Source: a virus (taxonomy: Duplodnaviria > Heunggongvirae > Uroviricota > Caudoviricetes). Taken from it: DNA of 41,845 nt. The first letter of the stretch is position 1, and every line of letters begins with the position of its first letter. The stretch is taken from IMG/VR virus record IMGVR_UViG_3300039314_000292; one strand, 5' to 3'. The translations under genes and the position numbers were made by a program. The notes below the pieces were generated by a model, which saw only the letters and a list, made by a program, of their open reading frames with translations, was not told where the DNA came from and did not search any database. Positions 1 to 26,804 of the stretch are shown here, piece after piece.

Positions 1-516
1 ATGAAATTTAAAAAATGTCTTCTGCCCGTGGCAATGTTAGCGTCATTCACTCTGGCAGGATGCCAGTCAAATGCTGATGATCATGCCGCCGATGTTTATC
101 AAACCGATCAACTGAATACCAAACAAGAAACTAAAACCGTTAATATTATTTCCATTCTTCCCGCAAAAGTTGCCGTAGACAACGCCCAAAATAAACGGAA
201 CGCACAAGCCTTCGGCGCGCTTATTGGCGCTGTCGCTGGCGGTGTTATCGGCCACAACGTCGGGTCTGGCAGCAATTCCGGAACGACGGCAGGTGCAGTT
301 GGCGGCGGAGCTGTAGGCGCGGCAGCGGGTTCTATGGTGAATGATAAAACCTTAGTGGAAGGTGTTTCTTTAACATATAAGGAAGGCACCAAAGTGTATA
401 CCTCCACCCAGGTGGGTAAAGAGTGCCAGTTTACGACAGGTTTAGCCGTTGTTATTACCACGACGTATAACGAAACGCGTATTCAGCCAAATACCAAATG
501 TCCTGAAAAGAGCTAA
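1..516 (+). CDS. SlyB/Pcp-like glycine-zipper outer-membrane lipoprotein (171 aa)
   Basis: ATG at 1; signal peptide with lipobox LAGC; Gly/Ala-rich glycine-zipper stretch GALIGAVAGGVIGHNVG...AVGGGAVGAAAGS; overall layout resembles SlyB (memory). Could be host gene or phage moron. Confidence 0.7.
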   Translation: MKFKKCLLPVAMLASFTLAGCQSNADDHAADVYQTDQLNTKQETKTVNIISILPAKVAVDNAQNKRNAQAFGALIGAVAGGVIGHNVGSGSNSGTTAGAVGGGAVGAAAGSMVNDKTLVEGVSLTYKEGTKVYTSTQVGKECQFTTGLAVVITTTYNETRIQPNTKCPEKS

Positions 517-531
517 TAATCAGGAGGAGTC

Positions 532-1071
532 ATGAAGAAAGTTTTTCTTTGCGCCATCTTAGCCTCCTTAAGCTATCCGGCTATCGCCTCATCATTGCAG
601 GATCAACTCTCGGCTGTCGCAGAAGCGGAACAGCAAGGTAAAAATGAAGAGCAAAGGCAGCATGACGAATGGGTCGCGGAGCGCAACAGGGAAATCCAGC
701 AAGAGAAGCAACGTCGCGCAAACGCCCAGGCCGCGGCTAATAAAAGAGCGGCAACGGCAGCAGCGAATAAGAAAGCTCGTCAGGATAAACTGGACGCCGA
801 AGCCACTGCGGACAAAAAACGCGATCAAAGTTATGAAGATGAGCTACGTAGCTTAGAGATTCAGAAACAAAAACTGGCGCTGGCGAAAGAAGAAGCCCGC
901 GTTAAGCGCGAAAACGAATTTATCGATCAGGAACTGAAGCACAAAGCTGCGCAAACCGATGTGGTGCAATCTGAAGCTGACGCAAACAGAAATATGACTG
1001 AAGGCGGTCGCGATCTGATGAAAAGCGTGGGTAAAGCAGAAGAGAATAAATCAGATAGCTGGTTTAACTAA
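532..1071 (+). CDS. secreted charged coiled-coil protein (179 aa), function unknown
   Basis: AGGAGG RBS about 7 nt upstream of ATG 532; N-terminal signal peptide MKKVFLCAILASLSYPAIA; remainder K/E/Q/A/R-rich helical; followed by intrinsic terminator. Confidence 0.65.
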   Translation: MKKVFLCAILASLSYPAIASSLQDQLSAVAEAEQQGKNEEQRQHDEWVAERNREIQQEKQRRANAQAAANKRAATAAANKKARQDKLDAEATADKKRDQSYEDELRSLEIQKQKLALAKEEARVKRENEFIDQELKHKAAQTDVVQSEADANRNMTEGGRDLMKSVGKAEENKSDSWFN

Positions 1072-1113
1072 ACGATGTTAGTAACTTCAAACCTATAATT
1101 CTTTAGGATAAAA

Positions 1114-1147
1114 AACCCTCTGTAGTAACAGAGGGTTTTGTTCATTC
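1114..1147. terminator. bidirectional rho-independent terminator
   Basis: Hairpin AACCCTCTG-TAGTAA-CAGAGGGTT flanked by an A-run upstream and T-run downstream; sits between convergent + strand genes and the - strand lysis cassette. Confidence 0.7.
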
Positions 1148-1265
1148 ATAGTGCAGGGTCAAATCATTCCCACTCAATTATTTACGATAACCATAACCAA
1201 TTGAGTGATAACATTTTTCCAAATCTCAATTTTTCCCGTACCGTTTTATATACCGTCACCGGAAA

Positions 1266-1763
1266 TCAGTGCCACGATTTTTGCTTCTTCAGTGAATCGT
1301 ATTGCTGCTCGCAGAATTCCCCTGCGATACGATACTTTTCAGCCTCAGCTGCTGTTGCGTTGTAAACTCGGTTGCTTTCTTCAAGCATGTCGGCGAGCAC
1401 ACCGATGACCTTGCTGGCTGGCGTGCCAGGGGGGAAAGATCCGGTATAGTGTTCGGCGAGCCGCCTGGTTTTGTCAAGCTCGGCGCGCATGCTGTCAGCA
1501 GCGGAATTAGCATACTCAGCATCAGCACGCGCCGCATCGATACGGGATTGTGCTTCACGTTCAATTTGTGTTTTCTCCTGCTCACGCTGTGACCTTAACT
1601 TATCATCAGCCTGTTTCTGATCTTCCTTCGCCTGCGCATACCCGGCATCGTACTGACGGATGCCGTGCACATTCCAGGCAACAACTCCTGATATGACCAG
1701 AACAGCAAGCATCGCCACGATAAGTAACTGTTTACGGTATGCTTTTACAAATGCCCAGATCAT
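1266..1763 (-). CDS. Rz-like i-spanin (165 aa)
   Basis: N-terminal TM anchor ([18 protein letters not shown]), then charged coiled-coil periplasmic domain; immediately downstream of endolysin; contains embedded +1-frame lipoprotein ORF. Confidence 0.7.
1289..1537 (-). CDS. Rz1-like o-spanin, embedded in Rz in alternate frame (about 77-82 aa)
   Basis: Alternate-frame ORF wholly inside Rz; lipobox LLTAC followed by Pro-rich sequence ([19 protein letters not shown]). Start chosen at internal Met; exact start uncertain (track ORF is 1289..1585). Confidence 0.5.
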   Translation of the reverse strand: MRRVLMLSMLIPLLTACAPSLTKPGGSPNTIPDLSPLARQPARSSVCSPTCLKKATEFTTQQQLRLKSIVSQGNSASSNTIH

Positions 1764-2389
1764 ACCGCCAGTACCTTACTTGCTGTGATGTACCGCGCAC
1801 GCCGGTCGTCGATACCGTTTCTGCCACCATTGATAATCAGAGTTACACGTGCAATATCGCCGGTATACTTCATGCATCCTTTGCTGGCGAAGAACCACGC
1901 CGCGCTACGAGCCGCATATTCGTCCTGCGCCAGCAGTTCAGGGCTCTCCAGCAGGTCAACCTTCAGACCGTTTCCGCAATCACGATAGTTATTCAAACCG
2001 GTAATCTGGATAAGTCCGCGCCCTCGGTAATTCCAGCCATCACCAGGGGCATTGTTCCCCATGCGTTTGCTGTATACCAGATTTGCGATCGCGCGCTGGC
2101 GCTCAAGTGGCAATGGTGGTTCACCAGCACGGCGCCCCAGTGCATTAGCCTGCCCCTGAGTGAGACGCCCAGCCCGAACGAAGTTAGCCAGTCCGCTGAC
2201 ACTGTAGTTGAAATTCTCCTGCAACCTGGTGAAGCCCCCAGACTCATGCCCGACTTGAGCAATAAACATTGCCTGATCTTCTGCTTTGCTGATACCAAAC
2301 TCTTTCATCGCAGAAGTTATATGCGAGAACCAGCGTGCGGCCAGTGCCTCGCTGATACCAGCAGCTCGCTGGAATTGTTTAATCTCCAT
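1760..2389 (-). CDS. endolysin, glycoside hydrolase family 19 (chitinase-like) lysozyme (209 aa)
   Basis: Start at internal Met ([11 protein letters not shown]...) preceded by GAGGT RBS, not the upstream extension in the ORF track; motifs [33 protein letters not shown] typical of GH19 phage endolysins (memory of SPN1S/epsilon15-group endolysins). Confidence 0.85.
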
Positions 2390-2687
2390 GTTTAGACCTC
2401 GATACTTTAAAAATTTGAACGACGTTACCGCGCGTTTTAATAACCGCAGCCAGCATGACAGCGTTGATAATGACCTCAGATAAATCCACAGCCATTGGCG
2501 TACGTAACCAGATTGCATAGGCGACTCGAACAGGAATACTGGCCGCAGCAACAATCAGGAAATAAGCAAGCCATCCTCCCCACCTTCGATGTTGAGAGCC
2601 GTTACGCCGGAATGTGACAACGCGAATTGCTATGCCAGTGCAAATAACTGCATTGGTGATAAGCAAAAAAAACTCATGCGTTACCAT
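2379..2687 (-). CDS. holin/antiholin-like small membrane protein (102 aa)
   Basis: Three predicted TM helices; overlaps the endolysin start and the upstream holin-like gene end as in lysis cassettes. Confidence 0.55.
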
Positions 2688-3078
2688 CGTCTTTTCTCCC
2701 CGGAATTAACTCGCGTGGATTATCGGAACGGTGATAGAGCCATATACCAATACGCACAGCGACAATTGCTGACACGAATGCGCCTGCAGAGAAAACAATC
2801 CCTTTTTCAAAAGAGTCCTGCGTGATGGTAGGGATCAGGCTGGCTATGCCGATAAGAATTGATGCTGCTGGTTTGTAAAAGAGAAGGCCACAAAGAAAGC
2901 TGAGCATCGAAAGGAGCACCCGGCGACGGATGGGGTACTCTACTGCAGAGGTAACAAAAATTACCGCCCCAGCCAAAGCCCCTAAAGCAACCTCCGGAGG
3001 GACACCTGCAATAACCGCAGCAAGAGAACCAAAACTAAGCAACTGATTTAATTGCTCACTTGTTACTTGAGCAGACAT
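2674..3078 (-). CDS. holin-like membrane protein (134 aa)
   Basis: Four hydrophobic TM-like segments; first gene of lysis cassette, preceded by AT-rich intergenic region. Confidence 0.55.
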   Translation of the reverse strand: MSAQVTSEQLNQLLSFGSLAAVIAGVPPEVALGALAGAVIFVTSAVEYPIRRRVLLSMLSFLCGLLFYKPAASILIGIASLIPTITQDSFEKGIVFSAGAFVSAIVAVRIGIWLYHRSDNPRELIPGRKDDGNA

Positions 3079-3386
3079 ACTTTCTCCTGTTTACTATCTA
3101 TAAGCCAGTCAATTATTGATGACTAACCCCCGCATAGTAAACCATATATGAATCATTATTGTTCCATATCATATATCTCAATAAAAGTACTAATGATTTT
3201 ACAGAACGAGCCAGCAGAGTGAGGGCAGTTGTACAGGAACCATAGACTTAATTTTGTATTTAATAATGCTATGGTGTAATAAACCTGAACATGTATTTAA
3301 AATACGTACTGATTCATGATAGAATTCAAGGATAACTTTTCACAAACTCCGTTTTTGATACCCGCAAAATATTGCGGGCTTTTTTT

Positions 3387-6300
3387 TTAACGTTCTTCCA
3401 GAGACTGAATCCGCTCTTTTATCTTATCCATTTCTCTGCGCTGCCATGCTGCCTCGATATAGAATAAGAGATCAGGTCTGACCCCCCATCTAGATCCTGC
3501 TGGCGTTATTTCAACGCGCTCAATGATGTCTTCCATTACCATCACTGGATTATCATCCTCATCAACAATAATGCTCCCGTCATTATCAGTCAGCGGCATT
3601 TCCCTTTGGCCAGTAATGACGTCATCATATACTGCGGGATAATCGTCATAGCAAAGAAACGCATAGCGGCATGTTGTGCTTTCTTCTTCCATGAGTCCGT
3701 GAGAAATAAGAACATCACGAAGTTGCTGCGCGATTACACCATGATGTATCCTCGCCCCTTCTTCCCCCTTTATAGCGACAGCGTTCAGCCATTTATAAGC
3801 GATATACCTGACGTCACCCCAGGCATCCAGCAATGCTTCGTCAGGAGAGACCGGCTCTGTCTTTAATGTTCCGTCACTGGTAACCACAGGATTGGAGCCA
3901 AGATAAACTGTCGAGAACCTGTTTCCCGGACCACCAAGAGCATTTACATTATCAAGATAAGGTTTAACATCTCCGTTCTCAAAAAGATGTTCGAGTGCGT
4001 TATATACCGCGCGACGTGGAGTACTGCTTCCGGAACCATGCAACGTTATCATTGCACCATCTGCTGAAGACGTTGTTTCACCGCCGCTAACGATTAATCT
4101 CTGAGCGGTAACATCATCAGACGGTACTTTCTTCGCAATAATGGCGTAATTACCCTCAAGTTTGACTTCCGCGCGAACTTGTCCTGATGTACCTGCATGG
4201 ACAGTCAGTGACTGGACGGCAACATCATCTGTGAAATCAACGGGTACAGGAACCGTCCTCACGCCTGACGTCGACATAAAAGTAGGAAGCGTTCTGTTAG
4301 GAGTGGCTCCGTAGACAAAATCCCTTGAAACAAATTCTTCCTGTTTAATTTTCACCCTGAAACAATACAAATCAGCCGGGTGACCATCGTGAACATAAGG
4401 ATATTTTCTGTTGTTATCCCCTATGCTCCATGGGTTTAGAAAGTCTTCCCCACCGAAAATGTAGTACAGCCAGTTGTCTTTGATACAAACTGAACCAACA
4501 CCAACCGCAGAGTTAACTATTCCGCCCTGATAAATCTGATCAGTAACATTAACCCACTCTACATTATCCAGACTCCACTCATTGACGTTAACTCTGGTCA
4601 TAAATGTTCTTGGATAATTTCCTGCATAACGGTTATCAGGTTCTCCTCCTTCCCACTCACCAAATGCGCGCTCACTGCCAAAAATAATCAGCTCATCGCC
4701 AACTTTGGCAAAAGGAAGGTTTGAGTGATGAACATTATTTGGGAAGCGAAGAGAATTCCATGATGTACCTAAATCAGAGCTTCTGTGCAATGAACTACCG
4801 GGTTGAGTACTTAATGTCCCCCTGGTCGTCAGATACAGAATGCCATCATAATATTTTACACATGGCTCAGATGCATTCGCCTCATATTCTGCAGGTATGC
4901 GTCTGCGAACAAAGCTACCAGGAGAACCGAAAGCATCAGAGAAATAGAGTATCCCAAGCTCGCGTGGACCAATATCACCATTATGGTAGCCAACAGCAAA
5001 ACTGTTATCGCTAATCGTCGCAAAACTGTGAATCTCAGTAACAGGAGTGCTTCCGTCAACAAAAGAAGGAATAGTTCCAAGACTGGTTTTTCTCCATGGT
5101 GACGAGTGAAATGATGTACCAAAACTCCAGTATCTACCCTCGTTATTCTGATCCACATCCTGGGTATTTTGCGTCGTAACTGTAAAAGTATTTTTATCAA
5201 TAACAGTAGTCACCGTCATATTCCCGGTAACACCTGTAACACCAGAGTTTGAGAAGTTGACAAAATCACCAGCAAATAATCCGTGATCAGTAATGCGAAT
5301 ATAAGCGACTTGCTGATTTGCTGCTTTCGTTATACCACCATAAACGCGAAGGCTGCGACTCATTGGGCGATCCCACAACTCTGCAACCTGCAGTTTATTT
5401 CCGCTCACGGTCCGCGTCTCAATTACAGCAAAAAGGCGATTTCTGACAACCCCCATACTCATGCAGTGATAGTTAACTGTGGGATAGTTTTCATGTAAAT
5501 CTGTAAGCCATTCCGGCGTTGTCCAGGTCTTCCCGTCATCTCCTGAGCGAACCCATGCAACATGGAGGTTATTTACACCATGGCGGTCTCCAGCCATAAA
5601 AGGCGCATAGATGACATTGTCATATACAAACGTTTTATCCTGCGTCCAGGCGTTGTACCACGGTGTATCTGTAATTTTAAATAACTCTCCCTGGATAAAA
5701 TCTTCAGAAGCATAAAAAAGAGGCTGGCCCGGTATTCTCTCAAATAAAAAACGAGCATTTTTAAATCGACTGACATCCGGAAGAGTTGATACTTTAAAAG
5801 TAAGCCCTAATCCGTCAATTCTATAACCTGGAGATGAGGCTTCAAGGCACGCGCTTATTGCAGTGGAATCGTCATTTATACCATCACCAACAGCTCCAAA
5901 ATCTTTGGGGCTAATAGCATCACGCATTTTATCCTGGAACGTTCGGTACACAGCCCCAGAACCATACTGAATAAACCAACCAAAACCACCAACAACCCCG
6001 GCGATTGCAGCATCGACATAATTACGCATTGAGCGATTATTTACAGCGTCCTGCTCAAATGATGGATCTGCAAGGTTAGAAATTTTGTTTTGCTTTGCAT
6101 CGTAATATTTTGCAAGCAAAGATGGTTTCATCAATGCACGTCTGAACCACCCAAAACATTGCTGGATCAGCATCGTCAGGTAGTCAAAGGCATCTTCATG
6201 CACTTCGGGGAAAAATTTTCCCTGATTGCGAAGGTCTGTCTCCTGCACTACATCAAGCACACGATCTATCGTAATTCGCCATCCAGTAGCAAGCGGAGAC

Positions 6301-6506
6301 GGAAGAACCACAGAACCGCCACTATAAGTGCCCGCCCCAGTTACCGTATAACCGGTATCCAGAACCAATTCTGTTACGTTTCCGTTCAGGTCAGACACCT
6401 GAACAACCAGGTCTGATTTTCTGAAAATTCGAAAAGTATACGGAAACGATGTCGTAACGCCGTTACCGGTGTATTCGTTGTGGTCAACTTCGGTTGAGAC
6501 CGTCAT
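3387..6506 (-). CDS. tailspike / receptor-binding depolymerase with C-terminal intramolecular chaperone domain (1039 aa)
   Basis: N-terminal NEYTGNGVTTSFPYTF segment typical of podovirus spike N-termini; DFGAVGDGINDDSTAI beta-helix (pectate-lyase-3-like) signature; Asp-box motifs SGDDGKTW and SSDLGTSW; C-terminal about 160 aa with SDGTLKT motif resembling self-cleaving chaperone (peptidase S74-like) domains. Confidence 0.9.
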   Translation of the reverse strand: MTVSTEVDHNEYTGNGVTTSFPYTFRIFRKSDLVVQVSDLNGNVTELVLDTGYTVTGAGTYSGGSVVLPSPLATGWRITIDRVLDVVQETDLRNQGKFFPEVHEDAFDYLTMLIQQCFGWFRRALMKPSLLAKYYDAKQNKISNLADPSFEQDAVNNRSMRNYVDAAIAGVVGGFGWFIQYGSGAVYRTFQDKMRDAISPKDFGAVGDGINDDSTAISACLEASSPGYRIDGLGLTFKVSTLPDVSRFKNARFLFERIPGQPLFYASEDFIQGELFKITDTPWYNAWTQDKTFVYDNVIYAPFMAGDRHGVNNLHVAWVRSGDDGKTWTTPEWLTDLHENYPTVNYHCMSMGVVRNRLFAVIETRTVSGNKLQVAELWDRPMSRSLRVYGGITKAANQQVAYIRITDHGLFAGDFVNFSNSGVTGVTGNMTVTTVIDKNTFTVTTQNTQDVDQNNEGRYWSFGTSFHSSPWRKTSLGTIPSFVDGSTPVTEIHSFATISDNSFAVGYHNGDIGPRELGILYFSDAFGSPGSFVRRRIPAEYEANASEPCVKYYDGILYLTTRGTLSTQPGSSLHRSSDLGTSWNSLRFPNNVHHSNLPFAKVGDELIIFGSERAFGEWEGGEPDNRYAGNYPRTFMTRVNVNEWSLDNVEWVNVTDQIYQGGIVNSAVGVGSVCIKDNWLYYIFGGEDFLNPWSIGDNNRKYPYVHDGHPADLYCFRVKIKQEEFVSRDFVYGATPNRTLPTFMSTSGVRTVPVPVDFTDDVAVQSLTVHAGTSGQVRAEVKLEGNYAIIAKKVPSDDVTAQRLIVSGGETTSSADGAMITLHGSGSSTPRRAVYNALEHLFENGDVKPYLDNVNALGGPGNRFSTVYLGSNPVVTSDGTLKTEPVSPDEALLDAWGDVRYIAYKWLNAVAIKGEEGARIHHGVIAQQLRDVLISHGLMEEESTTCRYAFLCYDDYPAVYDDVITGQREMPLTDNDGSIIVDEDDNPVMVMEDIIERVEITPAGSRWGVRPDLLFYIEAAWQRREMDKIKERIQSLEER

Positions 6507-6610
6507 GTTAAATCTCCAGATAGTCGCAGCACCCGTTGCGCCGCATATCTGGTTATTCTATTACCTGGAAAACCACATATGGATAGAAAGGCTGTAAATA
6601 CGAATAGATA

Positions 6611-6625
6611 TTACCTTTCAGGTGA
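6611..6625. promoter_or_regulatory. operator-like site TTACC-N5-GGTGA (near-perfect copy of the repeated palindrome)
   Basis: TTACCTTTCAGGTGA about 40 bp upstream of the LexA box; 4/5 match in second half-site. Confidence 0.45.
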
Positions 6626-6662
6626 TTTGCAAAACGTGCTGGATAGCAAACAAATTATTTGC

Positions 6663-6682
6663 TACTGTATAAATATACAGTT
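6663..6682. promoter_or_regulatory. LexA (SOS) box
   Basis: TACTGTATAAATATACAGTT: CTGT-N8-ACAG with AT-rich spacer, matches E. coli LexA consensus TACTGT(AT)4ACAGTA; 21 bp upstream of ATG 6702. Confidence 0.7.
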
Positions 6683-6701
6683 ATTGCATGGAGAAGATAA
6701 G

Positions 6702-6959
6702 ATGCAGCAGTATCACTATCCACTGGAAGACGGATTTACCGAAAGGATTCACACGCCGGGAGGCGTCAGGTCACTGGTGGAGGGATCGCACTTGATGAAA
6801 TTACTCCGGGATCTCGATAAGGATGGATTTAATGTCGATGGCCCACTTGCCGAACTGACTGCACTGATTAACTACGTCACCAGCTCACAGATGTCTATGC
6901 GGGATCTGCAAACACATCTCGACTATTGTGCCGAACAATTACGAAAACAAACCAGATAA
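6702..6959 (+). CDS. small SOS-controlled protein (85 aa), paralog of the antirepressor C-terminal domain; candidate antirepressor
   Basis: ATG 6702 with GGAGAA RBS, favoured over upstream ATG 6579; product aligns to C-terminus of 7275..7985 (LMKLL/LMNLL, DGFNVDG/DGHDVSG, AELT, RDLQTH/RDIQTH). Confidence 0.55.
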   Translation: MQQYHYPLEDGFTERIHTPGGVRSLVEGSHLMKLLRDLDKDGFNVDGPLAELTALINYVTSSQMSMRDLQTHLDYCAEQLRKQTR

Positions 6960-6988
6960 GATTTGAAATTACCAATAGGAGTGCTTAT

Positions 6989-7007
6989 ATTTACCTTTGC
7001 GGTAAAT
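6989..7007. promoter_or_regulatory. operator-like 19-bp perfect palindrome ATTTACC-N5-GGTAAAT
   Basis: ATTTACCTTTGCGGTAAAT; perfect 7-bp inverted half-sites; between small SOS gene and antirepressor gene. Confidence 0.6.
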
Positions 7008-7096
7008 TTACATCGCACTCCTCTTGTGCCATAGTAATCGGGCACTGGCAAAATCCAGTGCCGGGATTGGCGTCCCGGGTTACTAAGTGGCGCATA

Positions 7097-7118
7097 CCAC
7101 GCCAGACGTGGTTTTTTT
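7097..7118 (+). terminator. putative intrinsic terminator preceded by two strong hairpins
   Basis: CCACG-CCAGA-CGTGG followed by TTTTTTT; upstream hairpins GGCACTGG-CAAAAT-CCAGTGCC (7041..7062) and CCGGGA-TTGGCG-TCCCGG. Confidence 0.5.
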
Positions 7119-7274
7119 ATGCGTTAAGCACAGCTATATCCGAATTATGGTGGGCTGGGCAGGGGTCCGAAAGGACGCCGGTACCACTTAGGCCGGTACG
7201 CCAACCTTGTCCAGTTCACCACCAGTAATTGGCGTTGCGGTGGTGATTAAAATCACTAAGTGGAGATAACCACC

Positions 7275-7985
7275 ATGGCTAATGCTCAAACTGCCATCTT
7301 CAAATTTGAATCTGTTAACCCTATCCGTTCCATCATTATCGATGGCCGACCATGGTTTGTAGCCCAAGACGTTTGTAGTGCGCTGCGTATCCAAAACGTC
7401 ACCCAAGCACTTGAAAAACTGGATGATGATGAAAGGTCTATGTTCAACATAGGGCATGAACATCGTGCAATTTTTGACAGCCGAGTAAAAGAGATCAACA
7501 TTATCTCCGAGTCAGGCCTCTACACACTGATCCTCCGCTGCCGCGACGCAGTGACACCAGGCACTATCCCCTACCGCTTTCGTAAATGGGTTACAGGTGA
7601 GGTTCTTCCTCAGATCCGCCGCACCGGAAGTTACATTAAAAACTCGCTCCCGCAGGAAGAACGCATAAAGATGGTTGCCGACCAGGTAGCCAACGCCACG
7701 GCGTCAGCAGTAATGCAGGCGATGAAGATAGAGAACAAAACCTACAGTGCCCCGCTGAAGCCCGGCTACCGCAGTCTGATTCATTCCCCATCTGGTGTTC
7801 TCGGCCTGACGGAGCACTCACTGCTGATGAATCTGCTGAACCAGTTACAGGAAGACGGGCACGACGTATCGGGCGCGGCGGCGGAGCTGACCACCATGTT
7901 CTGCTACATCGTCGGTGTAAGCAAATGCCTGCGTGATATCCAGACGCACGCGGAGTACATCAACGACAAGGCTGGGTTCTTCTGA
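7275..7985 (+). CDS. Bro-N domain antirepressor-like protein (236 aa)
   Basis: ATG 7275 with GGAG RBS; N-terminal Bro-N signature (FKFESVNPIRSIIIDGRPWFVAQDVCSALRIQN...); C-terminal domain paralogous to 6702..6959. Confidence 0.8.
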   Translation: MANAQTAIFKFESVNPIRSIIIDGRPWFVAQDVCSALRIQNVTQALEKLDDDERSMFNIGHEHRAIFDSRVKEINIISESGLYTLILRCRDAVTPGTIPYRFRKWVTGEVLPQIRRTGSYIKNSLPQEERIKMVADQVANATASAVMQAMKIENKTYSAPLKPGYRSLIHSPSGVLGLTEHSLLMNLLNQLQEDGHDVSGAAAELTTMFCYIVGVSKCLRDIQTHAEYINDKAGFF

Positions 7986-8051
7986 CGGGCGGCGGCACAG
8001 GGATGTGCTTCTGACATAATCATTTGCGGTGTGATGTAGATTCACGTAAGA

Positions 8052-8066
8052 TTACCTTAAAGGTAA
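8052..8066. promoter_or_regulatory. operator-like perfect site TTACC-N5-GGTAA
   Basis: ATTACCTTAAAGGTAAACC immediately upstream of the 8093 operon start region. Confidence 0.55.
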
Positions 8067-8092
8067 ACCATGGGTTTACATGAGGAGGAGAT

Positions 8093-8302
8093 ATGGGATT
8101 TTGGTTCGCTCGTACAAAAACGAGGGATAATGCACCCAGCCCTCAGGCAAAAAATGCAGAAGTTCCGGCGTCAGCGCAGGTTAACAAGCGTGGTGGAGTA
8201 TATATCTCATCACAGCAAATTTCTGAGCTTCCTGAGGTTAAGGAGATGCGTCGTCTCGCTGCTGCAATTGTTAAACAGGATCTTGCCACTGTAAGGAAAT
8301 AG
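8093..8302 (+). CDS. small hydrophilic protein (69 aa), first gene of accessory operon
   Basis: ATG 8093 preceded by GAGGAGGAG; stop overlaps the GTG start of the next gene; chosen over overlapping alternate-frame ORF 8070..8294. Confidence 0.45.
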   Translation: MGFWFARTKTRDNAPSPQAKNAEVPASAQVNKRGGVYISSQQISELPEVKEMRRLAAAIVKQDLATVRK

Positions 8303-9168
8303 TGTTGTTAGCTCTTCTAATTATCCCCATTCTGGTTAGTGGTTATATTATGATAACCGCTAACCAGTATCATTATTTCCGTTTATACCGACATGAAGGC
8401 CAGCTTCTTTATATGAAAGTAGCTGCATTAGGTACATATTGCCTTGTTGCATCAGTAATAATTGCAGCCGCTATAAAATATAAATGGCCTGATTTTCACC
8501 TAGTTCACGATATGGTGGAAACTTTTAATGTAACATCAAAACCAGAAACAGATAGAATTTACATGTGGCTGCTTCTTCTCTCAGCCACATCCATTTGCTT
8601 CTCTTTGTGTTATGTGTCTGTTGTGTGGGTGAAAGATTTTCTTCTTGGTTGTTTTTATAAACGTGATATTTACGAGCAAAAAACAGAGGCAATGAAGGCC
8701 AGAGTACTGCGAAAAACTTACTCGCAAGGTTCTTTAGACTTACTATTGCTTGATGCTATTGAATCGGATCCTAAACGACCAATGTTGATTACTTTATCAT
8801 CAAACAAAGTGTATGTTGGAATAATAAATGGTTCTGGTGAACCAACGGAAAATCAGGGTCCGCATCAGCACATATCTTTTGTTCCTTTAATGTCAGGATA
8901 CAGGAACAAAGAAAACTTATCTGTCACATTCACTAATGCTTATCCAGGAGAAATACAGGTCAAGCGGACTGCAGCAATAAGAGGAATTAGCAGAAAGAAA
9001 GTGCCAGGACTTGAGATCATGGTGTCTATTGACGAAATAAGTTATATATCATGGTTTGATTTTGAAGTATATAAAGCAACAAATAACAAAGTAGAATCCA
9101 GGGGGCACGTTATTCGTGTTACCAAAAATGGAAGAAATATATATCAAAGAAATAGCAAAAAAGAATAG
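8302..9168 (+). CDS. low-GC inner-membrane protein (288 aa): 3 N-terminal TM helices plus about 170-aa soluble domain; candidate superinfection-exclusion/defence protein
   Basis: GTG 8302 with AAGGA RBS; markedly AT-rich versus flanking phage genes; TM segments LLALLIIPILVSGYIMI, VAALGTYCLVASVIIAAAI, IYMWLLLLSATSICFSLCYVSVVWV; terminator follows. Confidence 0.7.
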   Translation: MLLALLIIPILVSGYIMITANQYHYFRLYRHEGQLLYMKVAALGTYCLVASVIIAAAIKYKWPDFHLVHDMVETFNVTSKPETDRIYMWLLLLSATSICFSLCYVSVVWVKDFLLGCFYKRDIYEQKTEAMKARVLRKTYSQGSLDLLLLDAIESDPKRPMLITLSSNKVYVGIINGSGEPTENQGPHQHISFVPLMSGYRNKENLSVTFTNAYPGEIQVKRTAAIRGISRKKVPGLEIMVSIDEISYISWFDFEVYKATNNKVESRGHVIRVTKNGRNIYQRNSKKE

Positions 9169-9190
9169 CCCGCGCTGCGGGCTTTTTTGT
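9168..9190 (+). terminator. rho-independent terminator
   Basis: GCCCGC-GCT-GCGGGC followed by TTTTTT directly after stop of 8302..9168. Confidence 0.7.
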
Positions 9191-9260
9191 GGACGAAACA
9201 AAAGCCAGTGCTACACTCATTGACGCCACATTGAGGTGGCTTATAGATGGAAATTTCACA

Positions 9261-9422
9261 ATGAAAAAAGCATTTGCTGCACTGTTCGTTTTGTTGTCTC
9301 TGGTAGCTTCAACTCAGGCCTTTGCCGGTCGTTGTCAGCACGACAGCGATACCGCCGCTGACGGCTCCCGCTGCGGTGGGCGTTCTGCGGATTCCCGCCC
9401 GGGCGGCGGTGGCATTCGTTAA
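9261..9422 (+). CDS. small secreted Cys-containing peptide (53 aa), hypothetical moron
   Basis: Own sigma70-like promoter TTGACG(9220..9225)-N16-TATAGA(9242..9247); signal peptide MKKAFAALFVLLSLVASTQAFA; very short leader, no clear RBS, so low confidence. Confidence 0.35.
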   Translation: MKKAFAALFVLLSLVASTQAFAGRCQHDSDTAADGSRCGGRSADSRPGGGGIR

Positions 9423-9428
9423 AAACAA

Positions 9429-9444
9429 GGCCGCGAAAGCGGCC
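9429..9444 (-). terminator. rho-independent terminator for the minus-strand 186-aa gene
   Basis: GGCCGC-GAAA-GCGGCC with T-run on the minus strand (A-run on plus); adjacent to palindrome TGTGACATGTCACA (9445..9458). Confidence 0.6.
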
Positions 9445-9458
9445 TGTGACATGTCACA

Positions 9459-10019
9459 CTACATTGATATATGATTCATAAAGTAGCTTAAAGATTTACT
9501 TCCCAGAAAAGAAATTTCTTTTCCTGGATATGTCGCAATAATTGAGCATGACTTATCCCCGTTAGAGGTAACAAATCCTGAATAACCTACTTGTTCTTTA
9601 CCATTTTGTTGCTTGGCTAAAAAGTAGAGGTAGCTTATCTTTTTGCCCTCTGGGTAAAACTCTGCCAAACCAGTATCGGTGATTGAATATTTTATTCTCC
9701 CGCCTTGAGTAACGTTTTCCATCTCAAGTTTAGCTATGTCTTTTCTGTTGTATTCAGCATTGATTTTCCTTTCGAAATCAATGTTGTTTTCAAATGAGTA
9801 GGAAGCAACAGTCTGAATAGATGGGAACACGTTTATCTGGATGCCTCCACAGTCGGCACAGGTATAAAGGTATGAATCAGATGGAATCCCCATAAAAGAA
9901 AACTGAGTTACCTTAAATTTATCGCTATCTCCAAAGTATTGAAGTTCGCATTTAACATTTTGCCCTGCAAAAGAAAATGCAGACATCAATATTGAAACAA
10001 AAAATATAATTGCCTTCAT
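9459..10019 (-). CDS. low-GC secreted protein (186 aa), moron appended to virion-protein operon
   Basis: Signal peptide MKAIIFFVSILMSAFSFAG; AT-rich; starts 2 nt after stop of the 850-aa virion protein gene; own terminator. Confidence 0.7.
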   Translation of the reverse strand: MKAIIFFVSILMSAFSFAGQNVKCELQYFGDSDKFKVTQFSFMGIPSDSYLYTCADCGGIQINVFPSIQTVASYSFENNIDFERKINAEYNRKDIAKLEMENVTQGGRIKYSITDTGLAEFYPEGKKISYLYFLAKQQNGKEQVGYSGFVTSNGDKSCSIIATYPGKEISFLGSKSLSYFMNHISM

Positions 10020-10021
10020 TA

Positions 10022-12574
10022 TTATTTACCTAGTATGAACTGCGATGGTGGGATCAGAAAGTCGTTACCCTGCTCACGCTCAACACGGCGCTGATAACGC
10101 TCAAGAGAGCCTGGGTCAAGGGCATCTTGTATCCGGTTCAATATTAAACCATTCATCGCCGTACGAAGCCAGAACACGTTGAGGAATGGCGTATTGTCAA
10201 GTGCCGTGCGATACCAGTCACCCAAATCTGCATCCCCTCTCGTGGTCTGCTGGAGCAGCGTGATAATGCTGTCAGCGTTCGATGCTGCTGGCCCCATTAG
10301 CGACGTAACCGGCCCGGCCCCCATGCGGTTGACCTCGCCAAACATGAAGTCACCCAAGATGCCAAGACCGCCCCCCTGAGATGCGGCTGCGAGAAACGTC
10401 TTGGCATCTGCCGGGCGTGGTGTTTGCCCTTTCAGCATGAGTTTTGACTGCATGGAGATATAACCAAACATAGTCGCCCAGACAAAGAGGTTTGCAGCAC
10501 CAAGGAAAGCCCCCTTCCCGTTACGTAGCAGCGCATTCGTCAGCGATCCGGTTTTCGACTCACCAAGCCCAGCAGGAATATAACCACGCCCGAATACTTC
10601 GCGTCCTAGTACGTTCTGCATGAAGCTTGCAGTGAACGATTTGTACTGACCAGCGAATCGTATTGCTTCCCCAGCCACCGTTCCTGGCACCGTGCCCATC
10701 TTCATAAACGCCTGCGTGCGATCGCCAGGCTCTGACATGGCGATATTCAGGCGGTCAAGGATGTAGCCGCGCAACTGCCCTTCCAATTGATCGCGTGCGT
10801 CAGCGATAGCGCGCTGCGTTGGTTTGATCCCCTTACTCTCTACATAACCGGCAATCACTTCGTCAGGCACGCCGCGGATGCCGCTGGTCGTCATGAACTT
10901 ACGACCTTCGCTATCGGCCATGTCCATGTTGCGAAAAATTTCCCACTCACGTTCGCCAATACCGTGCAGATCCAGCACGCGTCGCAGGTCTTCCGGTAGC
11001 CGCGCATGAGACTGGTCAGCATTCTTTGCAAGCCAGTTGGTTATCATCATGGCGTTGCTGTTGCGACCGCTCTCGGTCCAGAAGTTCATGAGGTTGTACT
11101 TAAAGAAAAGCTGCTGCGCGCGACCAAGCTTTCCATTCAGCGTGTCATCACCAGATATGCGCCGGATGATTTCCTGCGTCATGGAGTCGGAATAAACTCC
11201 GATAGAGGAAAGGATCTCTTTCTGCTCCGCGCTGTTGTAACGCGTGAAGCGGCCTCTCATAGCACCAAGCAACGCCTGCATAAAATTCTGCCCTTGGTAG
11301 CGCATCTCGGTAGCGGCGATAGGCACGTCGTTAAACGATGAGATTACCGCGCCACCAAGTTGGCTCATACGCAACCAGCCGCGTACAGCCGCCGACGCAT
11401 TGGCCCAGCCTACGCTGCCAGGAATATTTAGCGAGCCGTCAACCTGCGGCATTACGGTACGGTTAATGCGACGCACCTTCGTCATGTAGTCAGCCAACGC
11501 TGCCGGTCTTCCGGATTTGCTGATATCTTCAGCAATGGCGTCCGTCAGGTACTTAAACATGTTCTGTGGGTTAGTGCCCAGTACGCGCATCATGCCCGTT
11601 GTGCGGGCAGCGCTGTTTAAGCCACCAAACAGCGCTTCTCGCAGGCTGCCGGTGCCGAATTGCTGGTTGTACTCGTGCCACGAGATACCATCTTTGAAGT
11701 GCAAAATTCGCTCTTGGCTGGCGCGTTTAGCTGCGTTCGCCGATCCCTTAAAGCCATTCATCCAATCGGGCTTTTCAGATGTAAGATGCACGCCGGAAGC
11801 CAGCCCGTTATAAATGTTACGCATGAACTGCTCGCGGTCAGCCACGCCGTCAAAAGTGCGCTCATCAAGGCGCGGGAGAATAGCATTTCGCCATGCTTCA
11901 TAACCTGCGGCGCGGATCTTCATGATGTCGTGTGACTGGCGCACTATATAGCCCGGCTCTTTGCGTATCCATGCCCCGGCGCGGTTCTCATCAATGCGCG
12001 CAGTTTCCTGCCATTTCATGATGATTTGTGCAGCGCTTACGGATTGCTTTGTCATACCGTCAGTTGACTGCCCGCGCCCTATGCGCCACATTGCATCGGC
12101 AATTTCCCGGTCATTGCTGCCGCTGGCGATGAATTGCACCAGCCCGGCACGGTCAAAATCGTAGTTGATACCGGAATGATACTTGCCGCGCAGTTGCGCC
12201 ACCTCCGAAGATACCGACCGGCGGGCGCCGGTACGCGCATCGTTGCGGCCAACCAGCATTGCTTCAAGCCCGATATCCGGGCGGTCTTTCCAGATAGTAC
12301 GAAGCTCTCTAAGTCGTTGTGCGGCAATACGGGCGTTGATTGCCTTATTGCGAGCCTCAATCTGTTTTGCCAGCATATCGGCATTGCTCAGTTCTTCCGC
12401 TGCGCGCATCGCGGCCTCTTCCAGAGACAGCGCCTCATTGGTCGCCAGAATTCGCCTAGTGGTGTCGTTCATGTCACGCACCAGCGACTCCATCTCATCG
12501 GAAGAAAGCTCGCGACCAGCGGCAGCATTTACACTGCGCTCGCACTGCGTCAAAAATTCGTTTGCTGCCATCAC
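10022..12574 (-). CDS. internal virion / DNA-ejection protein (850 aa)
   Basis: Large protein in podovirus-type structural operon between internal proteins and tailspike region; translationally coupled (ATGA overlap) to upstream gene. Confidence 0.7.
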   Translation of the reverse strand: MMAANEFLTQCERSVNAAAGRELSSDEMESLVRDMNDTTRRILATNEALSLEEAAMRAAEELSNADMLAKQIEARNKAINARIAAQRLRELRTIWKDRPDIGLEAMLVGRNDARTGARRSVSSEVAQLRGKYHSGINYDFDRAGLVQFIASGSNDREIADAMWRIGRGQSTDGMTKQSVSAAQIIMKWQETARIDENRAGAWIRKEPGYIVRQSHDIMKIRAAGYEAWRNAILPRLDERTFDGVADREQFMRNIYNGLASGVHLTSEKPDWMNGFKGSANAAKRASQERILHFKDGISWHEYNQQFGTGSLREALFGGLNSAARTTGMMRVLGTNPQNMFKYLTDAIAEDISKSGRPAALADYMTKVRRINRTVMPQVDGSLNIPGSVGWANASAAVRGWLRMSQLGGAVISSFNDVPIAATEMRYQGQNFMQALLGAMRGRFTRYNSAEQKEILSSIGVYSDSMTQEIIRRISGDDTLNGKLGRAQQLFFKYNLMNFWTESGRNSNAMMITNWLAKNADQSHARLPEDLRRVLDLHGIGEREWEIFRNMDMADSEGRKFMTTSGIRGVPDEVIAGYVESKGIKPTQRAIADARDQLEGQLRGYILDRLNIAMSEPGDRTQAFMKMGTVPGTVAGEAIRFAGQYKSFTASFMQNVLGREVFGRGYIPAGLGESKTGSLTNALLRNGKGAFLGAANLFVWATMFGYISMQSKLMLKGQTPRPADAKTFLAAASQGGGLGILGDFMFGEVNRMGAGPVTSLMGPAASNADSIITLLQQTTRGDADLGDWYRTALDNTPFLNVFWLRTAMNGLILNRIQDALDPGSLERYQRRVEREQGNDFLIPPSQFILGK

Positions 12575-14268
12575 ATCCCCCGGTTAATCATACAGGCGGC
12601 AAATGCCCGGAAAGCGTTGCTCATGCTATTGTCGCTGGCGTCGGCACGAATATCATTGAGTTTCTGGCGCAACGTGGTCGCAAGATCAGGGTTATCGACA
12701 GCGATATCGTCAAGCAGGGCGTTACTCAGGTTGAGCTCGTTATCAAGGTCTGCAGCGGCAGCGGTAATTTCATGATCTGCCTTTTGCGTTTCTTGATAAA
12801 CCCGATCGGCTGTTTCGCTTGCTGGGCGAGCCGTTTCATCAACCTGCCGTGCCGGGTTCTGTATGCGATGGATGGCGCGTTCACGCAGTGCCGGTTTGTG
12901 CAGTTCATAGAAGGGCTCAACATCTGGGCTACGTCCTTCCATCATGTGTGCCAGCGCAGCGCGATACGCCTGCTGGTTCACGTTCCAGTCAGCATCCCTG
13001 ATGGCGCTTGCGGCAGTGCGAACTGCGCCAGCGACCGGCGACATCTGCATGCCGTCCAGGATCTGCTGCGCACGCTCGGAAATGGTGACTTTCAGGTCGT
13101 CTGGGATCTCGCCGCGGGAAATCTGAGACTGGCGCCAGCGCGCCTGCTCTGCTGTCGCGTTCTGCTCCAGCGATGTGTTGATCTCCTGATTGCGTGCAGC
13201 GATGGCGTCTTTCTCGGCCTGAATCTCTTTCAGTGCCCTAGAGCGCGCATCCTTAAACTTCATCCGCTGCCCCTGATACTTTTTGGTGCGCTGCTGCAGC
13301 GTCGCATCAAGCGAGTCAGCATGACGTTGATTAGCCGCAAGCTCGGCACGCAGGTCGGCAACGTTACCGATCTGACCGCTCTGTAATTCCTGCTGGCGCG
13401 CCATATAGTCAGGAACCACGTCGTCATAAGCCCGGCTGTATGCGTAGCTCTCCGCTTCACTGGAAATGGCCGCCGCCAGATCTGCGTTAGCGCCAACCTC
13501 AGGGATATTCACGCCCGCCGGAATGTTGTCAGGCGTTATCACCGGGGTTGGCTGCGCATCGCCAGAAAACGCCGGGGACTCTCCCGTTGCAGCATCGGGA
13601 ACGCGACGCGGTCGCACGATATCGGCGATAAGGCCGCCGCCGGCATGCATTAGACCGCCAGCCATCGTGTTAAAGAAAGTACTTTCCAACGCGTTGCTAT
13701 AGGTGAAGTCGTCACCTTCCGCCGCCGCTGCCAGCCCGGTAAGCGGCACGGTCACCACCGCCTGCGCTGCCCCCATGCGTGCACCAGCAACAAATCGCTC
13801 GCCAAATCGGCCAAGCACAGAAGCCGCCTTTGCTTCTCCAGCGAACGGAACCAGCGCCAGCGCCACGTTACCAGGATCTGCCATTGAACCAGCTAGGCTG
13901 GCTGCGAAATTAAGCGGCGTGGCTACCCATCCGCTCGGTGCCGACATCGCGATCTGCTGGCGTGCCAGAGAATCTTTGCGTTCAGCAATAACATGATCGA
14001 GAAAAGCCTGCGTAACGCCAGAATCTGGCACGTTTATGCTCTTTACGCCGTACTGCTTCAGGAGCTCATCCGCTTCCTGCTTACTGATAACTGTAGAGTT
14101 TGGGTCATTCGCCAGCGAGTCGGCCTGCGCAAAGCGGTAGCCGGACATGACCGGCCCCTCTTCAAATCCCTGCTTAAGGGAAGAAAGCAGCGATTCGCCA
14201 AGCCCTGCTGGCGCGTTGCCAATTGGCTGGTTAATTCCCTGTCCCGGATCATCTGTGTAAATTGGCAT
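12571..14268 (-). CDS. internal virion protein (565 aa)
   Basis: Position and coupling within structural operon; Ala/Gln-rich helical protein. Confidence 0.7.
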   Translation of the reverse strand: MPIYTDDPGQGINQPIGNAPAGLGESLLSSLKQGFEEGPVMSGYRFAQADSLANDPNSTVISKQEADELLKQYGVKSINVPDSGVTQAFLDHVIAERKDSLARQQIAMSAPSGWVATPLNFAASLAGSMADPGNVALALVPFAGEAKAASVLGRFGERFVAGARMGAAQAVVTVPLTGLAAAAEGDDFTYSNALESTFFNTMAGGLMHAGGGLIADIVRPRRVPDAATGESPAFSGDAQPTPVITPDNIPAGVNIPEVGANADLAAAISSEAESYAYSRAYDDVVPDYMARQQELQSGQIGNVADLRAELAANQRHADSLDATLQQRTKKYQGQRMKFKDARSRALKEIQAEKDAIAARNQEINTSLEQNATAEQARWRQSQISRGEIPDDLKVTISERAQQILDGMQMSPVAGAVRTAASAIRDADWNVNQQAYRAALAHMMEGRSPDVEPFYELHKPALRERAIHRIQNPARQVDETARPASETADRVYQETQKADHEITAAAADLDNELNLSNALLDDIAVDNPDLATTLRQKLNDIRADASDNSMSNAFRAFAACMINRGM

Positions 14269-14269
14269 G

Positions 14270-16891: not shown

Positions 16892-17436
16892 TATAATCCT
16901 CCGGGTAATCTGGTTCCTGCTGCTGCCCCGATTGGCGCAGGGGTGCTTTGAGTAAACGGACTCCACGTCCCACCAAACATCTGGTACGCACCGTATGCCT
17001 TCAGAGGCGCAGTGAGCAATGTTGTTGCTGCTCCCACATTCCCCTGTTTACGGGCTGAACTGGCTTCTGCTTTATAGTTGGCAGCCTGAACCTGATAACC
17101 GTAAGCCTCGCGTTGCGCGTTATTCACCGTCGTCAGAGAATCAAGAGCGCCAAACTGGGCAGTGTCGCCAAATATATCCAGCGCGTTACCTGTAGATAAA
17201 TCAGCGCCGGTAGCCCCCATTGTCGCCGCCTGTGTACCAAGCCGCTGTCGGGTCTCTCTGCGCCGTTGCTCAGCTTCAGCGTTACCTCTGTTTATTGCAT
17301 CATTTGCCTGAGCTGTGGCTATATCTGCGTTCGCTTCTGCAACCTTCGAGGCATACTTTCCCTGTTGGTACTGGGTGTATGCCTGAATGCCACTCATGGC
17401 GAGCATTGCGCCACCAGCAATAACCGGATCGCACAT
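16891..17436 (-). CDS. virion internal protein, T7 gp14-like size class (181 aa)
   Basis: Ala/Gln-rich small protein preceding the large internal proteins; operon position. Confidence 0.55.
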   Translation of the reverse strand: MCDPVIAGGAMLAMSGIQAYTQYQQGKYASKVAEANADIATAQANDAINRGNAEAEQRRRETRQRLGTQAATMGATGADLSTGNALDIFGDTAQFGALDSLTTVNNAQREAYGYQVQAANYKAEASSARKQGNVGAATTLLTAPLKAYGAYQMFGGTWSPFTQSTPAPIGAAAGTRLPGGL

Positions 17437-17900
17437 TATTTTCTCTCCATGTGAAATCTGTGGAAATTAAGACCAAGAGCACCATAAGGCGCGGCTTCTT
17501 CAAGCCTGAATCCAAGCCAGTGCAGCCATGCTTTGGCAACATGGTTTCGCTCGTCGACATAGTTTTCCAGGCGCGGATAAACTGCCAGCATCTGCTGCAA
17601 TACAGGGCGGCAGTGGCGAAGAAATGTCTTCTGATATTTTTCGATACGGCTGGTTCCGACCAGCCAGGGCGTACCATTGCCACCAATCATTGACGCCGGA
17701 GATACGCCAAACATGGTTACCAGTTCTCCGTTCGCGAACCCTGACCAGGCCATAGTCGCAGTGCGAAGACCAACGCGCAGCGCATCTTCGGTAGTCATCA
17801 GCGATACCGCATACAGTTCGTCAATATCAGCCTGACGAACATCCGGCAAAATCATCTGAAGATGCTCTTCGGTAGCGGGAATAATTTGAACATCGATCAT
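17436..17900 (-). CDS. virion-associated protein (154 aa)
   Basis: Translationally coupled within tail/internal-protein gene string. Confidence 0.5.
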   Translation of the reverse strand: MIDVQIIPATEEHLQMILPDVRQADIDELYAVSLMTTEDALRVGLRTATMAWSGFANGELVTMFGVSPASMIGGNGTPWLVGTSRIEKYQKTFLRHCRPVLQQMLAVYPRLENYVDERNHVAKAWLHWLGFRLEEAAPYGALGLNFHRFHMERK

Positions 17901-26769: not shown

Positions 26770-26785
26770 GCCTGATGACCACAAA

Positions 26786-26803
26786 TTACCTTAAAGGTAT
26801 AAT
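26786..26803 (+). promoter_or_regulatory. operator-like site overlapping a TATAAT -10 element of the moron promoter
   Basis: TTACCTTAAAGGTAT (26786..26800) with TATAAT at 26798..26803. Confidence 0.5.
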
Positions 26804-26804
26804 C

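Follow-up and report, generated by a model that had tools for sequence, protein, structure and literature searches.

The locus at positions 3387 to 6506 of a 41,845-nucleotide stretch of caudoviricete DNA (IMG/VR record IMGVR_UViG_3300039314_000292, hereafter called the window) raises the question of whether its product is an unusual union of three signatures, viz., a pectate-lyase-type motif, sialidase-type Asp-boxes and a self-cleaving C-terminal domain, or a spike of standard design. The 1039-aa spike reported by the first-pass annotation is present: the ORF list and translation give 1039 codons plus a stop on the minus strand (3387..6506), with the start ATG at 6506, the stop codon at 3387-3389 and a ribosome-binding site (GGAG) 9 nt ahead of the ATG. 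The plus-strand ORFs of 86-108 aa that lie within the same coordinates are its shadows. Its product has the standard endosialidase architecture, and we identify it with high confidence as a canonical phage endosialidase (endo-N-acetylneuraminidase), borne as the tailspike of a temperate podovirus of epsilon15-like (Uetakevirus) type. Phage endosialidases belong to glycoside hydrolase family 58. The tailspike is already known, being annotated in RefSeq and having a three-domain layout described for phage vB_EcoP_ZX5; the discovery value is small, and the practical worth lies in correct annotation.

Five Pfam domains, all scoring above their gathering cut-offs, are contiguous over aa 205-937 in the canonical endosialidase order. 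The N-terminal extension of the catalytic part (PF12218, End_N_terminal; aa 205-271, 5694..5894, on the minus strand like all features of the protein) is recovered with E = 8.2e-32 and 109.2 bits against a cut-off of 26.3, and leads into the six-bladed catalytic beta-propeller (PF12217, End_beta_propel; aa 272-721, 4344..5693), which matches the full profile (positions 1-367) with E = 1.4e-233 and 774.9 bits against a cut-off of 24. A lectin-like beta-barrel is inserted in this propeller (PF12195, End_beta_barrel; aa 383-465, 5112..5360; E = 3.2e-46, 155.7 bits), and beyond it lie the stalk (PF12219, End_tail_spike; aa 722-876, 3879..4343; E = 8.4e-78, 260.4 bits) and, C-terminal to the stalk, the intramolecular chaperone or Peptidase_S74 domain (PF13884; aa 877-1039, 3390..3878), with a profile match over aa 877-937 of 41.4 bits against a cut-off of 22. 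Upstream of these domains, nucleotide and amino acid identity to epsilon15-type spikes delineates an epsilon15-type (Uetakevirus) virion-anchor module (aa 1-194, 5925..6506), and windowed nucleotide identity sets apart a joint of separate origin (aa 195-233, 5808..5924).

Searches against the PDB give the same picture. The EndoNF structures 1V0E and 3GVL match aa 205-876 with E = 0, the tailspike aligning to EndoNF from residue 246 onward and its stalk aligning up to the point where the mature EndoNF chains end in the crystals, while the phi92-type endosialidase 4HIZ is matched with E = 1.6e-271. The C-terminal region is covered by 3GW6, which comprises the EndoNF stalk and chaperone (aa 757-1038, E = 1.3e-93), and its last domain also matches the phi29-family neck appendage 3GUD (E = 5.9e-08). 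EndoNF itself, gp17 of the T7-like phage K1F, has the same domain order, catalytic residues, pair of Asp-boxes and Ser/Lys dyad. Identity to it is 70% for the propeller, 56% for the stalk and 54% for the chaperone; unlike the present protein it carries a T7-type N-terminal anchor, and relative to it the tailspike has two insertions, one of 7 aa (FVDGSTP, aa 482-488) and one of 8 aa within the chaperone.

The propeller retains the residues expected of an active enzyme of this class. Both strict Asp-boxes (S-x-D-x-G-x-[TS]-W), SGDDGKTW (aa 321-328, 5523-5546) and SSDLGTSW (aa 576-583, 4758-4781), align with those of K1F, and their occurrence is far beyond chance (a mean of 0.0018 boxes per shuffled protein, with two boxes in 0 of 5000 shuffles), so that this part of the first-pass annotation is upheld. 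With the list of active-site residues taken from the K1F literature, the alignment shows conservation of all five catalytic positions, H309, R515, E547, R562 and R613 corresponding to K1F H350, R549, E581, R596 and R647; Q289, K551 and N665, along with the chaperone pair R832/D961, are likewise conserved. In that literature the propeller-inserted barrel is a polysialic acid binding site, and the stalk is described as a beta-helix stalk with a third such site.

The closest counterpart of the catalytic part is SiaK1 of the P22-like prophage CUS-3 (CP000711), to whose gene nucleotides 699-3091 of the tailspike gene are 99.5% identical. The proteins are 100% identical over propeller and barrel, 98.7% over the stalk and 99.3% over the chaperone up to aa 1025, and share the same 7-aa insertion relative to K1F; they differ in the last 14 residues and in the anchor, which is P22-type in CUS-3, leaving aa 1-204 essentially unalignable. 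The annotation of CUS-3 siaK1 cites a direct assay as evidence of endo-alpha-sialidase activity (Stummeyer et al. 2006, PMID 16689790). The substrate had been held impossible to infer from sequence, a view that does not stand: because the propeller is indistinguishable from that of the CUS-3 endosialidase and closely related to that of EndoNF, it can be inferred that the tailspike probably acts on alpha-2,8-polysialic acid, i.e., the K1 capsule. The endosialidase domains and conserved catalytic residues agree with the earlier description of a glycan-degrading receptor-binding tailspike, the degrading activity being a prediction from sequence.

The C-terminal domain of about 160 aa had been likened to self-cleaving intramolecular chaperones on account of its SDGTLKT motif (aa 877-883, 3858-3878), a comparison that the PF13884 and 3GW6 matches bear out. 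From S877 to the C-terminus there are 163 aa, and the Ser-x4-Lys dyad formed by S877 (3876-3878) and K882 (3861-3863) aligns with K1F S911/K916. In the K1F record the annotated mature peptide ends at T910, the equivalent of T876. Self-cleavage is therefore predicted between T876 and S877, which would make the serine the first residue of the released domain; a Ser/Lys dyad mechanism of self-cleavage has been described (PMC3742443).

The gene belongs to a prophage integrated beside yfgI/yfgH in an E. coli chromosome. Among complete E. coli genomes, the best match to positions 1-20000 of the window covers 92% of them at 99% identity. Downstream of the spike lie holins, a GH19 endolysin and DUF2514, and elsewhere the window encodes a portal, a capsid, an SLT ejection protein and an integrase, the capsid and portal being GP7-type. 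The window and the Uetakevirus ZX5 (MW722083) are collinear, sharing long blocks at 97.5-99% identity and two short ones at 86-94%. The ZX5 ORF7 tail protein is likewise 1039 aa long and differs only by R229K and S368R; its gene has the same downstream neighbours, whereas the surrounding prophage differs in the ejection-protein genes and several cargo ORFs. This ZX5 protein has been reported to combine an N-terminus like that of T7 tail fibres with an endosialidase middle part and, at the C-terminus, an endosialidase intramolecular chaperone (Pathogens 2022, PMC9782041).

At the nucleotide level the tailspike gene is 99.8% identical both to that of vB_EcoP_ZX5 and to a gene found in 72 of 5426 complete E. 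coli genomes, whose product, WP_000218907.1, differs by one residue (R229K) and is named in RefSeq 'endosialidase catalytic beta-propeller domain-containing protein'. The hosts of this gene include APEC O1, two strains labelled O1:K1:H7, APEC O18 and CSF isolates, as well as EC69. Some K1 strains (e.g., EC69 and APEC O18) carry two different prophages, one Uetakevirus-type and one CUS-3-type, with the same endosialidase module. In CUS-3 the phase-variable O-acetyltransferase gene neuO adjoins the spike; here there is no neuO-like gene beside it, and the whole window holds neither an AAGACTC heptamer repeat (allowing up to 2 mismatches) nor tandem repeats.

By homology to K1F EndoNF and CUS-3 SiaK1, we propose that three chains would assemble into a mushroom-shaped trimer, the S74 chaperone domain nucleating the folding of the stalk and, once the correct trimer has formed, cutting itself off between T876 and S877 by means of the S877/K882 dyad. 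The N-terminal ~195 residues would dock the spike on an epsilon15-type tail. The beta-barrel and stalk would then bind alpha-2,8-polysialic acid and the propeller active site (H309, R515, E547, R562, R613) would cleave it, so that the virion could tunnel through the K1 capsule and reach the outer membrane. Enzymatic activity, self-cleavage and a K1 host range are thus what we infer for this spike; the prophage in the window should be K1-capsule-specific, and the spike, which is essentially the CUS-3 enzyme, may serve as it stands as a polysialic acid depolymerase.

No feature of the sequence speaks against this identification, against which three other readings can be weighed. The endosialidase fold might have shifted in specificity, preferring, for example, O-acetylated K1 or the alternating alpha-2,8/2,9 (K92) polysialic acid. 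The modest identity of stalk and chaperone to K1F (~54-56%) leaves room for such a shift, as does a substitution in the stalk. The stalk binding-site residues of K1F are R837, S848 and Q853; in the alignment the first two are kept as R803 and S814, and Q853 is replaced by M819 both here and in CUS-3. Mutational scanning of K1F further indicates that residues of the barrel and stalk fine-tune the discrimination between hosts. However, the same differences occur in SiaK1, the enzyme of a K1-specific phage, and the gene occurs in strains labelled K1, and we regard a shifted specificity as very unlikely. More improbable still is a decayed or binding-only spike, left as a relic in a cryptic prophage, which would bind polysialic acid without cleaving it or would not be built into virions. 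The gene does sit in a chromosome, prophage genes often decay, and binding-only point mutants of endosialidases are known from the cited literature, where they serve as polysialic acid detection reagents. Yet the ORF is intact, every catalytic and dyad residue that was mapped is kept, the propeller does not differ from that of the CUS-3 enzyme, genes for morphogenesis, lysis and integration are present in the window as a complete set, and ZX5, whose protein has only the two differences given above, is a free-living, plaque-forming temperate phage.

The remaining alternative, a pectate-lyase-fold depolymerase (a right-handed parallel beta-helix) with extra Asp-boxes and open glycan specificity, takes up the pectate-lyase-type motif of the first-pass annotation. 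This motif is real: DFGAVGDGINDDSTAI occupies aa 202-217 (5856-5903), carries the signature G-A-x-G-D-G-x-x-D-D and is similar to the N-terminal cap seen in pectate-lyase-3-type spikes. Weak local matches were also obtained, with E = 0.031 for PF12708 (aa 201-221) and E = 0.07-0.26 for the Sf6 tailspike and an alginate epimerase, and the sister phage EC.W1-9, which has the same anchor, does possess a beta-helix fold (PF12708, E = 1.1e-11). Against this, of the Pfam domains that had been suggested for a search, Peptidase_S74 passes its cut-off but PF12708 (Pectate_lyase_3, or Pect-lyase_RHGA_epim) does not, reaching 14.5 bits against a cut-off of 27 over 21 residues that correspond to profile positions 5-25 of 213. 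The residues of the motif are the first ~20 of End_N_terminal, and the endosialidases of K1F and CUS-3 have an equivalent motif. With aa 1-204 taken up by the anchor and aa 205-1038 by homology to endosialidases and their chaperone, there is therefore no stretch of ~200-300 aa free for a beta-helix. The beta-helix fold is refuted by this domain tiling and by the sub-cut-off Pfam score, and we assign the corresponding reading a negligible probability; what was taken for a pectate-lyase signature is the start of End_N_terminal.

That such a motif is shared by spikes of different folds bears on the make-up of the canonical endosialidase tailspike that we favour. The gene is a three-piece mosaic, composed of an epsilon15-type anchor, a short joint that bears the G-A-x-G-D-G-x-x-D-D motif, and an endosialidase-plus-chaperone block like that of CUS-3. 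The sequence encoding aa 1-194 is 98.5% identical at the nucleotide level to that of the EC.W1-9 spike ('eliminase'), whose catalytic part differs, and the anchor proteins are 98.5% identical over aa 1-199. Over aa 1-165 the anchor is 64-72% identical to those of other epsilon15-type spikes (Salmonella E15, SPN1S and O157 typing phage 10), with 71.5% amino acid identity to the N-terminus of the Salmonella phage VB_ST_E15 tailspike. The anchor further matches domain 1 of Dpo31/Dpo36 in the PDB (E = 1.1e-35), and this N-terminus is common to more than 15 PHROG tail families. The assignment as an epsilon15-type anchor is supported by both the homologous N-terminus and the epsilon15-like genome. 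In EC.W1-9 and the epsilon15-type spikes the catalytic part is a right-handed beta-helix (PF12708 in EC.W1-9) without an S74 chaperone.

Between anchor and catalytic block, the joint shows ~48-83% nucleotide identity to EC.W1-9 or CUS-3 in 60-nt windows, whereas the sequence on either side of it matches one of these two at 98-100% identity. The G-A-x-G-D-G-x-x-D-D motif occurs at the same position in the EC.W1-9 beta-helix spike, where it reads D-F-G-A-x-G-D-G-I-x-D-D, and in the CUS-3 and K1F endosialidases. Tentatively, we suggest that aa 195-233 might be a conserved splice point for whole-module swaps (beta-helix to beta-propeller or the reverse) in epsilon15-type prophages, in which case the 99.5% identical block could reflect recent gene conversion in K1 strains that are lysogenic for both prophages, EC69 and APEC O18 among them; we consider this possible rather than probable. 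The evidence covers the mosaic make-up of the gene and the presence of both prophages in the same strains, and not the direction, timing or mechanism of exchange. T7-, SP6- and P22-type anchors on endosialidase modules are already in the literature, and the present mosaic offers a further clean example, here with an epsilon15-type anchor, of how a single catalytic module comes to be grafted on different virion anchors, a principle already known.

A defence or cargo role found no support for the neighbouring unknown ORFs at 8302-9168, 9459-10019 and 6579-6959, which had no Pfam or PADLOC match and matched PHROGs of unknown function only, save for 6579-6959, which has a weak match to an anti-repressor PHROG. 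Directly after the tailspike stop codon lies a GC-rich hairpin (3361-3378), with a T-run on the plus strand only, i.e., opposite to the gene.

The spike gene is a single open reading frame on the minus strand (window 3387..6506, with the ATG at 6506 and the stop codon at 3387-3389) that encodes 1039 amino acids and has a GGAG ribosome-binding site 9 nt upstream of its start; residue and nucleotide numbers below are its own unless otherwise labeled. The first-pass annotation, made from the sequence alone, correctly recognized both the frame and its motifs, and the sole correction it needs is that of the strand to minus. All the motifs were recovered in the translation, namely the DFGAVGDG-type DFGAVGDGINDDSTAI (aa 202-217), two strict Asp-boxes, SGDDGKTW (aa 321-328) and SSDLGTSW (aa 576-583), and SDGTLKT (aa 877-883), the C-terminal part from S877 onward being 163 residues long. 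Shuffled versions of the spike contain a mean of 0.0018 Asp-boxes per sequence, and none of 5000 shuffles yielded two; the pair is not a product of chance.

Pfam searches showed that the full phage endosialidase domain set tiles the spike: End_N_terminal (aa 205-271; E = 8e-32), End_beta_propel (aa 272-721; E = 1.4e-233) with End_beta_barrel inserted in the propeller (aa 383-465; E = 3e-46), End_tail_spike (aa 722-876; E = 8e-78), and Peptidase_S74 (aa 877-937; E = 1.7e-10). Searches of solved structures matched aa 205-876 to those of EndoNF, the endosialidase (gp17) of the T7-like phage K1F (1V0E and 3GVL; E = 0), and the spike to a further endosialidase structure (4HIZ; E = 1.6e-271). Judging from this architecture, the spike belongs to a well-known type of protein, the phage endosialidases, and the receptor-destroying role earlier proposed for it is likewise supported. 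The prediction of a C-terminal self-cleaving chaperone of the S74 type is also supported by the Peptidase_S74 score (41.4 bits against a cut-off of 22) and by the match of aa 757-1038 to 3GW6, the EndoNF stalk with its intramolecular chaperone (E = 1.3e-93). Over its first approximately 200 residues, the spike matches domain 1 of the tailspikes Dpo31/Dpo36 (E = 1e-35) as well as the N-terminal regions of numerous different PHROG tail families; in tblastn searches, this stretch is 64-72% identical to the N-termini of epsilon15-type tailspikes from Salmonella E15, SPN1S, and O157 typing phage 10.

A three-way alignment of the spike, SiaK1 of the P22-like prophage CUS-3, and full-length K1F gp17 showed that all five catalytic residues of K1F, viz., H350, R549, E581, R596, and R647 (K1F mutational-scanning paper), are conserved, as H309, R515, E547, R562, and R613. 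The critical K1F residues Q330, K585, and N699 and the stalk/chaperone pair R866/D994 are conserved too. The mature peptide in the K1F record ends at T910 and the chaperone begins at S911, which align with T876 and S877 of the spike; K916 of K1F, five residues on from S911, aligns with K882. In the mechanism published for this chaperone domain, self-cleavage involves a Ser/Lys dyad that is set in position only once the trimer has folded (PMC3742443).

The DFGAVGDG motif had also been read as the signature of a pectate-lyase-fold beta-helix, and this reading did not survive. The motif matches the pectate-lyase-like PF12708 at 14.5 bits, below the cut-off of 27, over 21 residues only (E = 0.031), and its residues form the opening of the End_N_terminal domain; the endosialidases of K1F and CUS-3 have an equivalent G-A-x-G-D-G-x-x-D-D-T motif in the same place. 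With aa 1-204 constituting the anchor and aa 205-1038 the endosialidase and chaperone, no space is left for a right-handed beta-helix of this kind, and the sole ‘beta-helix’ of the spike is the stalk, so termed in the K1F literature. The earlier cue is understandable given the sister phage EC.W1-9: after the same anchor, at 98.5% identity, its spike continues with DFGAKGDGITDD and a true PF12708 domain. Since both this beta-helix spike and the endosialidases possess it, we interpret the G-A-x-G-D-G motif as a shared element of the boundary between anchor and catalytic module in both kinds of spike, and not as a signature of the downstream fold.

The substrate, which had been held not to be inferable from sequence, can in fact be predicted. 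The spike gene is 99.5% identical to siaK1 over nt 699-3091, and its propeller and barrel are 100% identical in protein sequence to those of the CUS-3 enzyme, for whose endo-alpha-sialidase activity the CUS-3 record cites direct-assay evidence. Therefore, we infer with high confidence that it targets alpha-2,8-polysialic acid, i.e., the K1 capsule. On database comparison the protein is already known: RefSeq WP_000218907.1, named ‘endosialidase catalytic beta-propeller domain-containing protein’, differs from it by one residue (R229K) and ORF7 of the temperate Uetakevirus vB_EcoP_ZX5 (ZX5) by two, and the spike gene matches its ZX5 counterpart and two Phi05 phage fragments at 99.8% identity. 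ORF7 was described as an endosialidase in its middle part, preceded by a T7-like tail-fibre N-terminus and followed at the C-terminus by an endosialidase intramolecular chaperone (PMC9782041). Of 5426 complete E. coli genomes, 72 contain at least 80% of the spike gene, among them those of APEC O1, APEC O18, two strains labeled O1:K1:H7, and isolates from CSF.

The gene is a mosaic in its similarities. Its nt 1-582 match EC.W1-9 at 98-100% identity, and the joint at aa 195-233 (116 nt; window 5808-5924, minus strand), which contains the G-A-x-G-D-G-x-x-D-D motif common to beta-helix spikes and endosialidases, is about 48-83% identical to EC.W1-9 or CUS-3 in 60-nt windows. This joint between anchor and catalytic module is thus of separate origin; the final 29 nt of the gene are likewise unlike CUS-3. 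The GC content of the pieces is uniformly about 0.45, as against 0.495 in the whole window. Both Uetakevirus-type and CUS-3-type spike genes are present in the CSF isolate EC69 and in APEC O18, and the two EC69 copies (L006 3501-6446 and L007 1501-4620, two stretches of NZ_CM128670.1) share 2394 nt at 99.58% identity, making an exchange between co-resident prophages plausible. In EC69 and APEC O18 (NZ_CP006830.1), each chromosome carries two distinct prophages with an endosialidase spike, one of the P22-like CUS-3 type with a neighboring acyltransferase and one of the epsilon15-like type. Unlike CUS-3, which has a neuO-type heptanucleotide contingency locus, the prophage showed none when the window was searched for it.

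The window is an epsilon15-like prophage. Host genes yfgH/yfgI (window 1-1071) are followed by a lysis cassette comprising DUF2514 (window 1266-1763) and, up to window 3078, a GH19 endolysin and two holins; beyond the spike lie a divergent block with a BRO-N antirepressor and, further along, ejection proteins including an SLT transglycosylase, a GP7-type capsid protein, portal, an MT-A70 methylase, and the integrase (window 40595-41845). The window is collinear with ZX5: the long common blocks are 97.5-99% identical and two short ones 86-94%, and several segments have been replaced. This exact prophage is absent from complete RefSeq E. coli genomes, the best of which covers 92% of window 1-20000; among the matches listed, related prophages bear different spikes, whose annotations are glycosyl hydrolase family 28-related or tail-fibre protein.

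Megablast gave no match in ZX5 for the ejection or internal-virion protein genes (window 9458-16475; 850, 565, and 898 aa, the last with the SLT transglycosylase domain), although both flanks are 98-99% identical to it; on this comparison, the segment constitutes a second replaced module. Between these genes and a cargo block lies a low-GC frame of 186 aa with a signal-peptide-like N-terminus (window 9459-10019, minus strand), whose sole match is the uncharacterized PHROG 11983. A 288-aa frame with a hydrophobic N-terminus (window 8302-9168, plus strand) is low in GC (0.37-0.40; whole window, 0.495); searches of Pfam and PADLOC gave no hit, and its only match is the uncharacterized PHROG 3630. 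Its absence from this position in ZX5 and in the APEC O1 prophage makes it a probable cargo (‘moron’) gene. Also absent from ZX5 is a 292-aa frame matching PHROG 4780, another uncharacterized family; it lies between the genes for portal and terminase and runs on the opposite strand (window 26775-27653, plus strand). Finally, a GC-rich hairpin, CCCGCAAAATATTGCGGG (window 3361-3378), lies 9 nt past the spike stop with a T-run on the plus strand only, and the 308 bp that follow, up to the holin gene, form an AT-rich gap (GC about 0.38).
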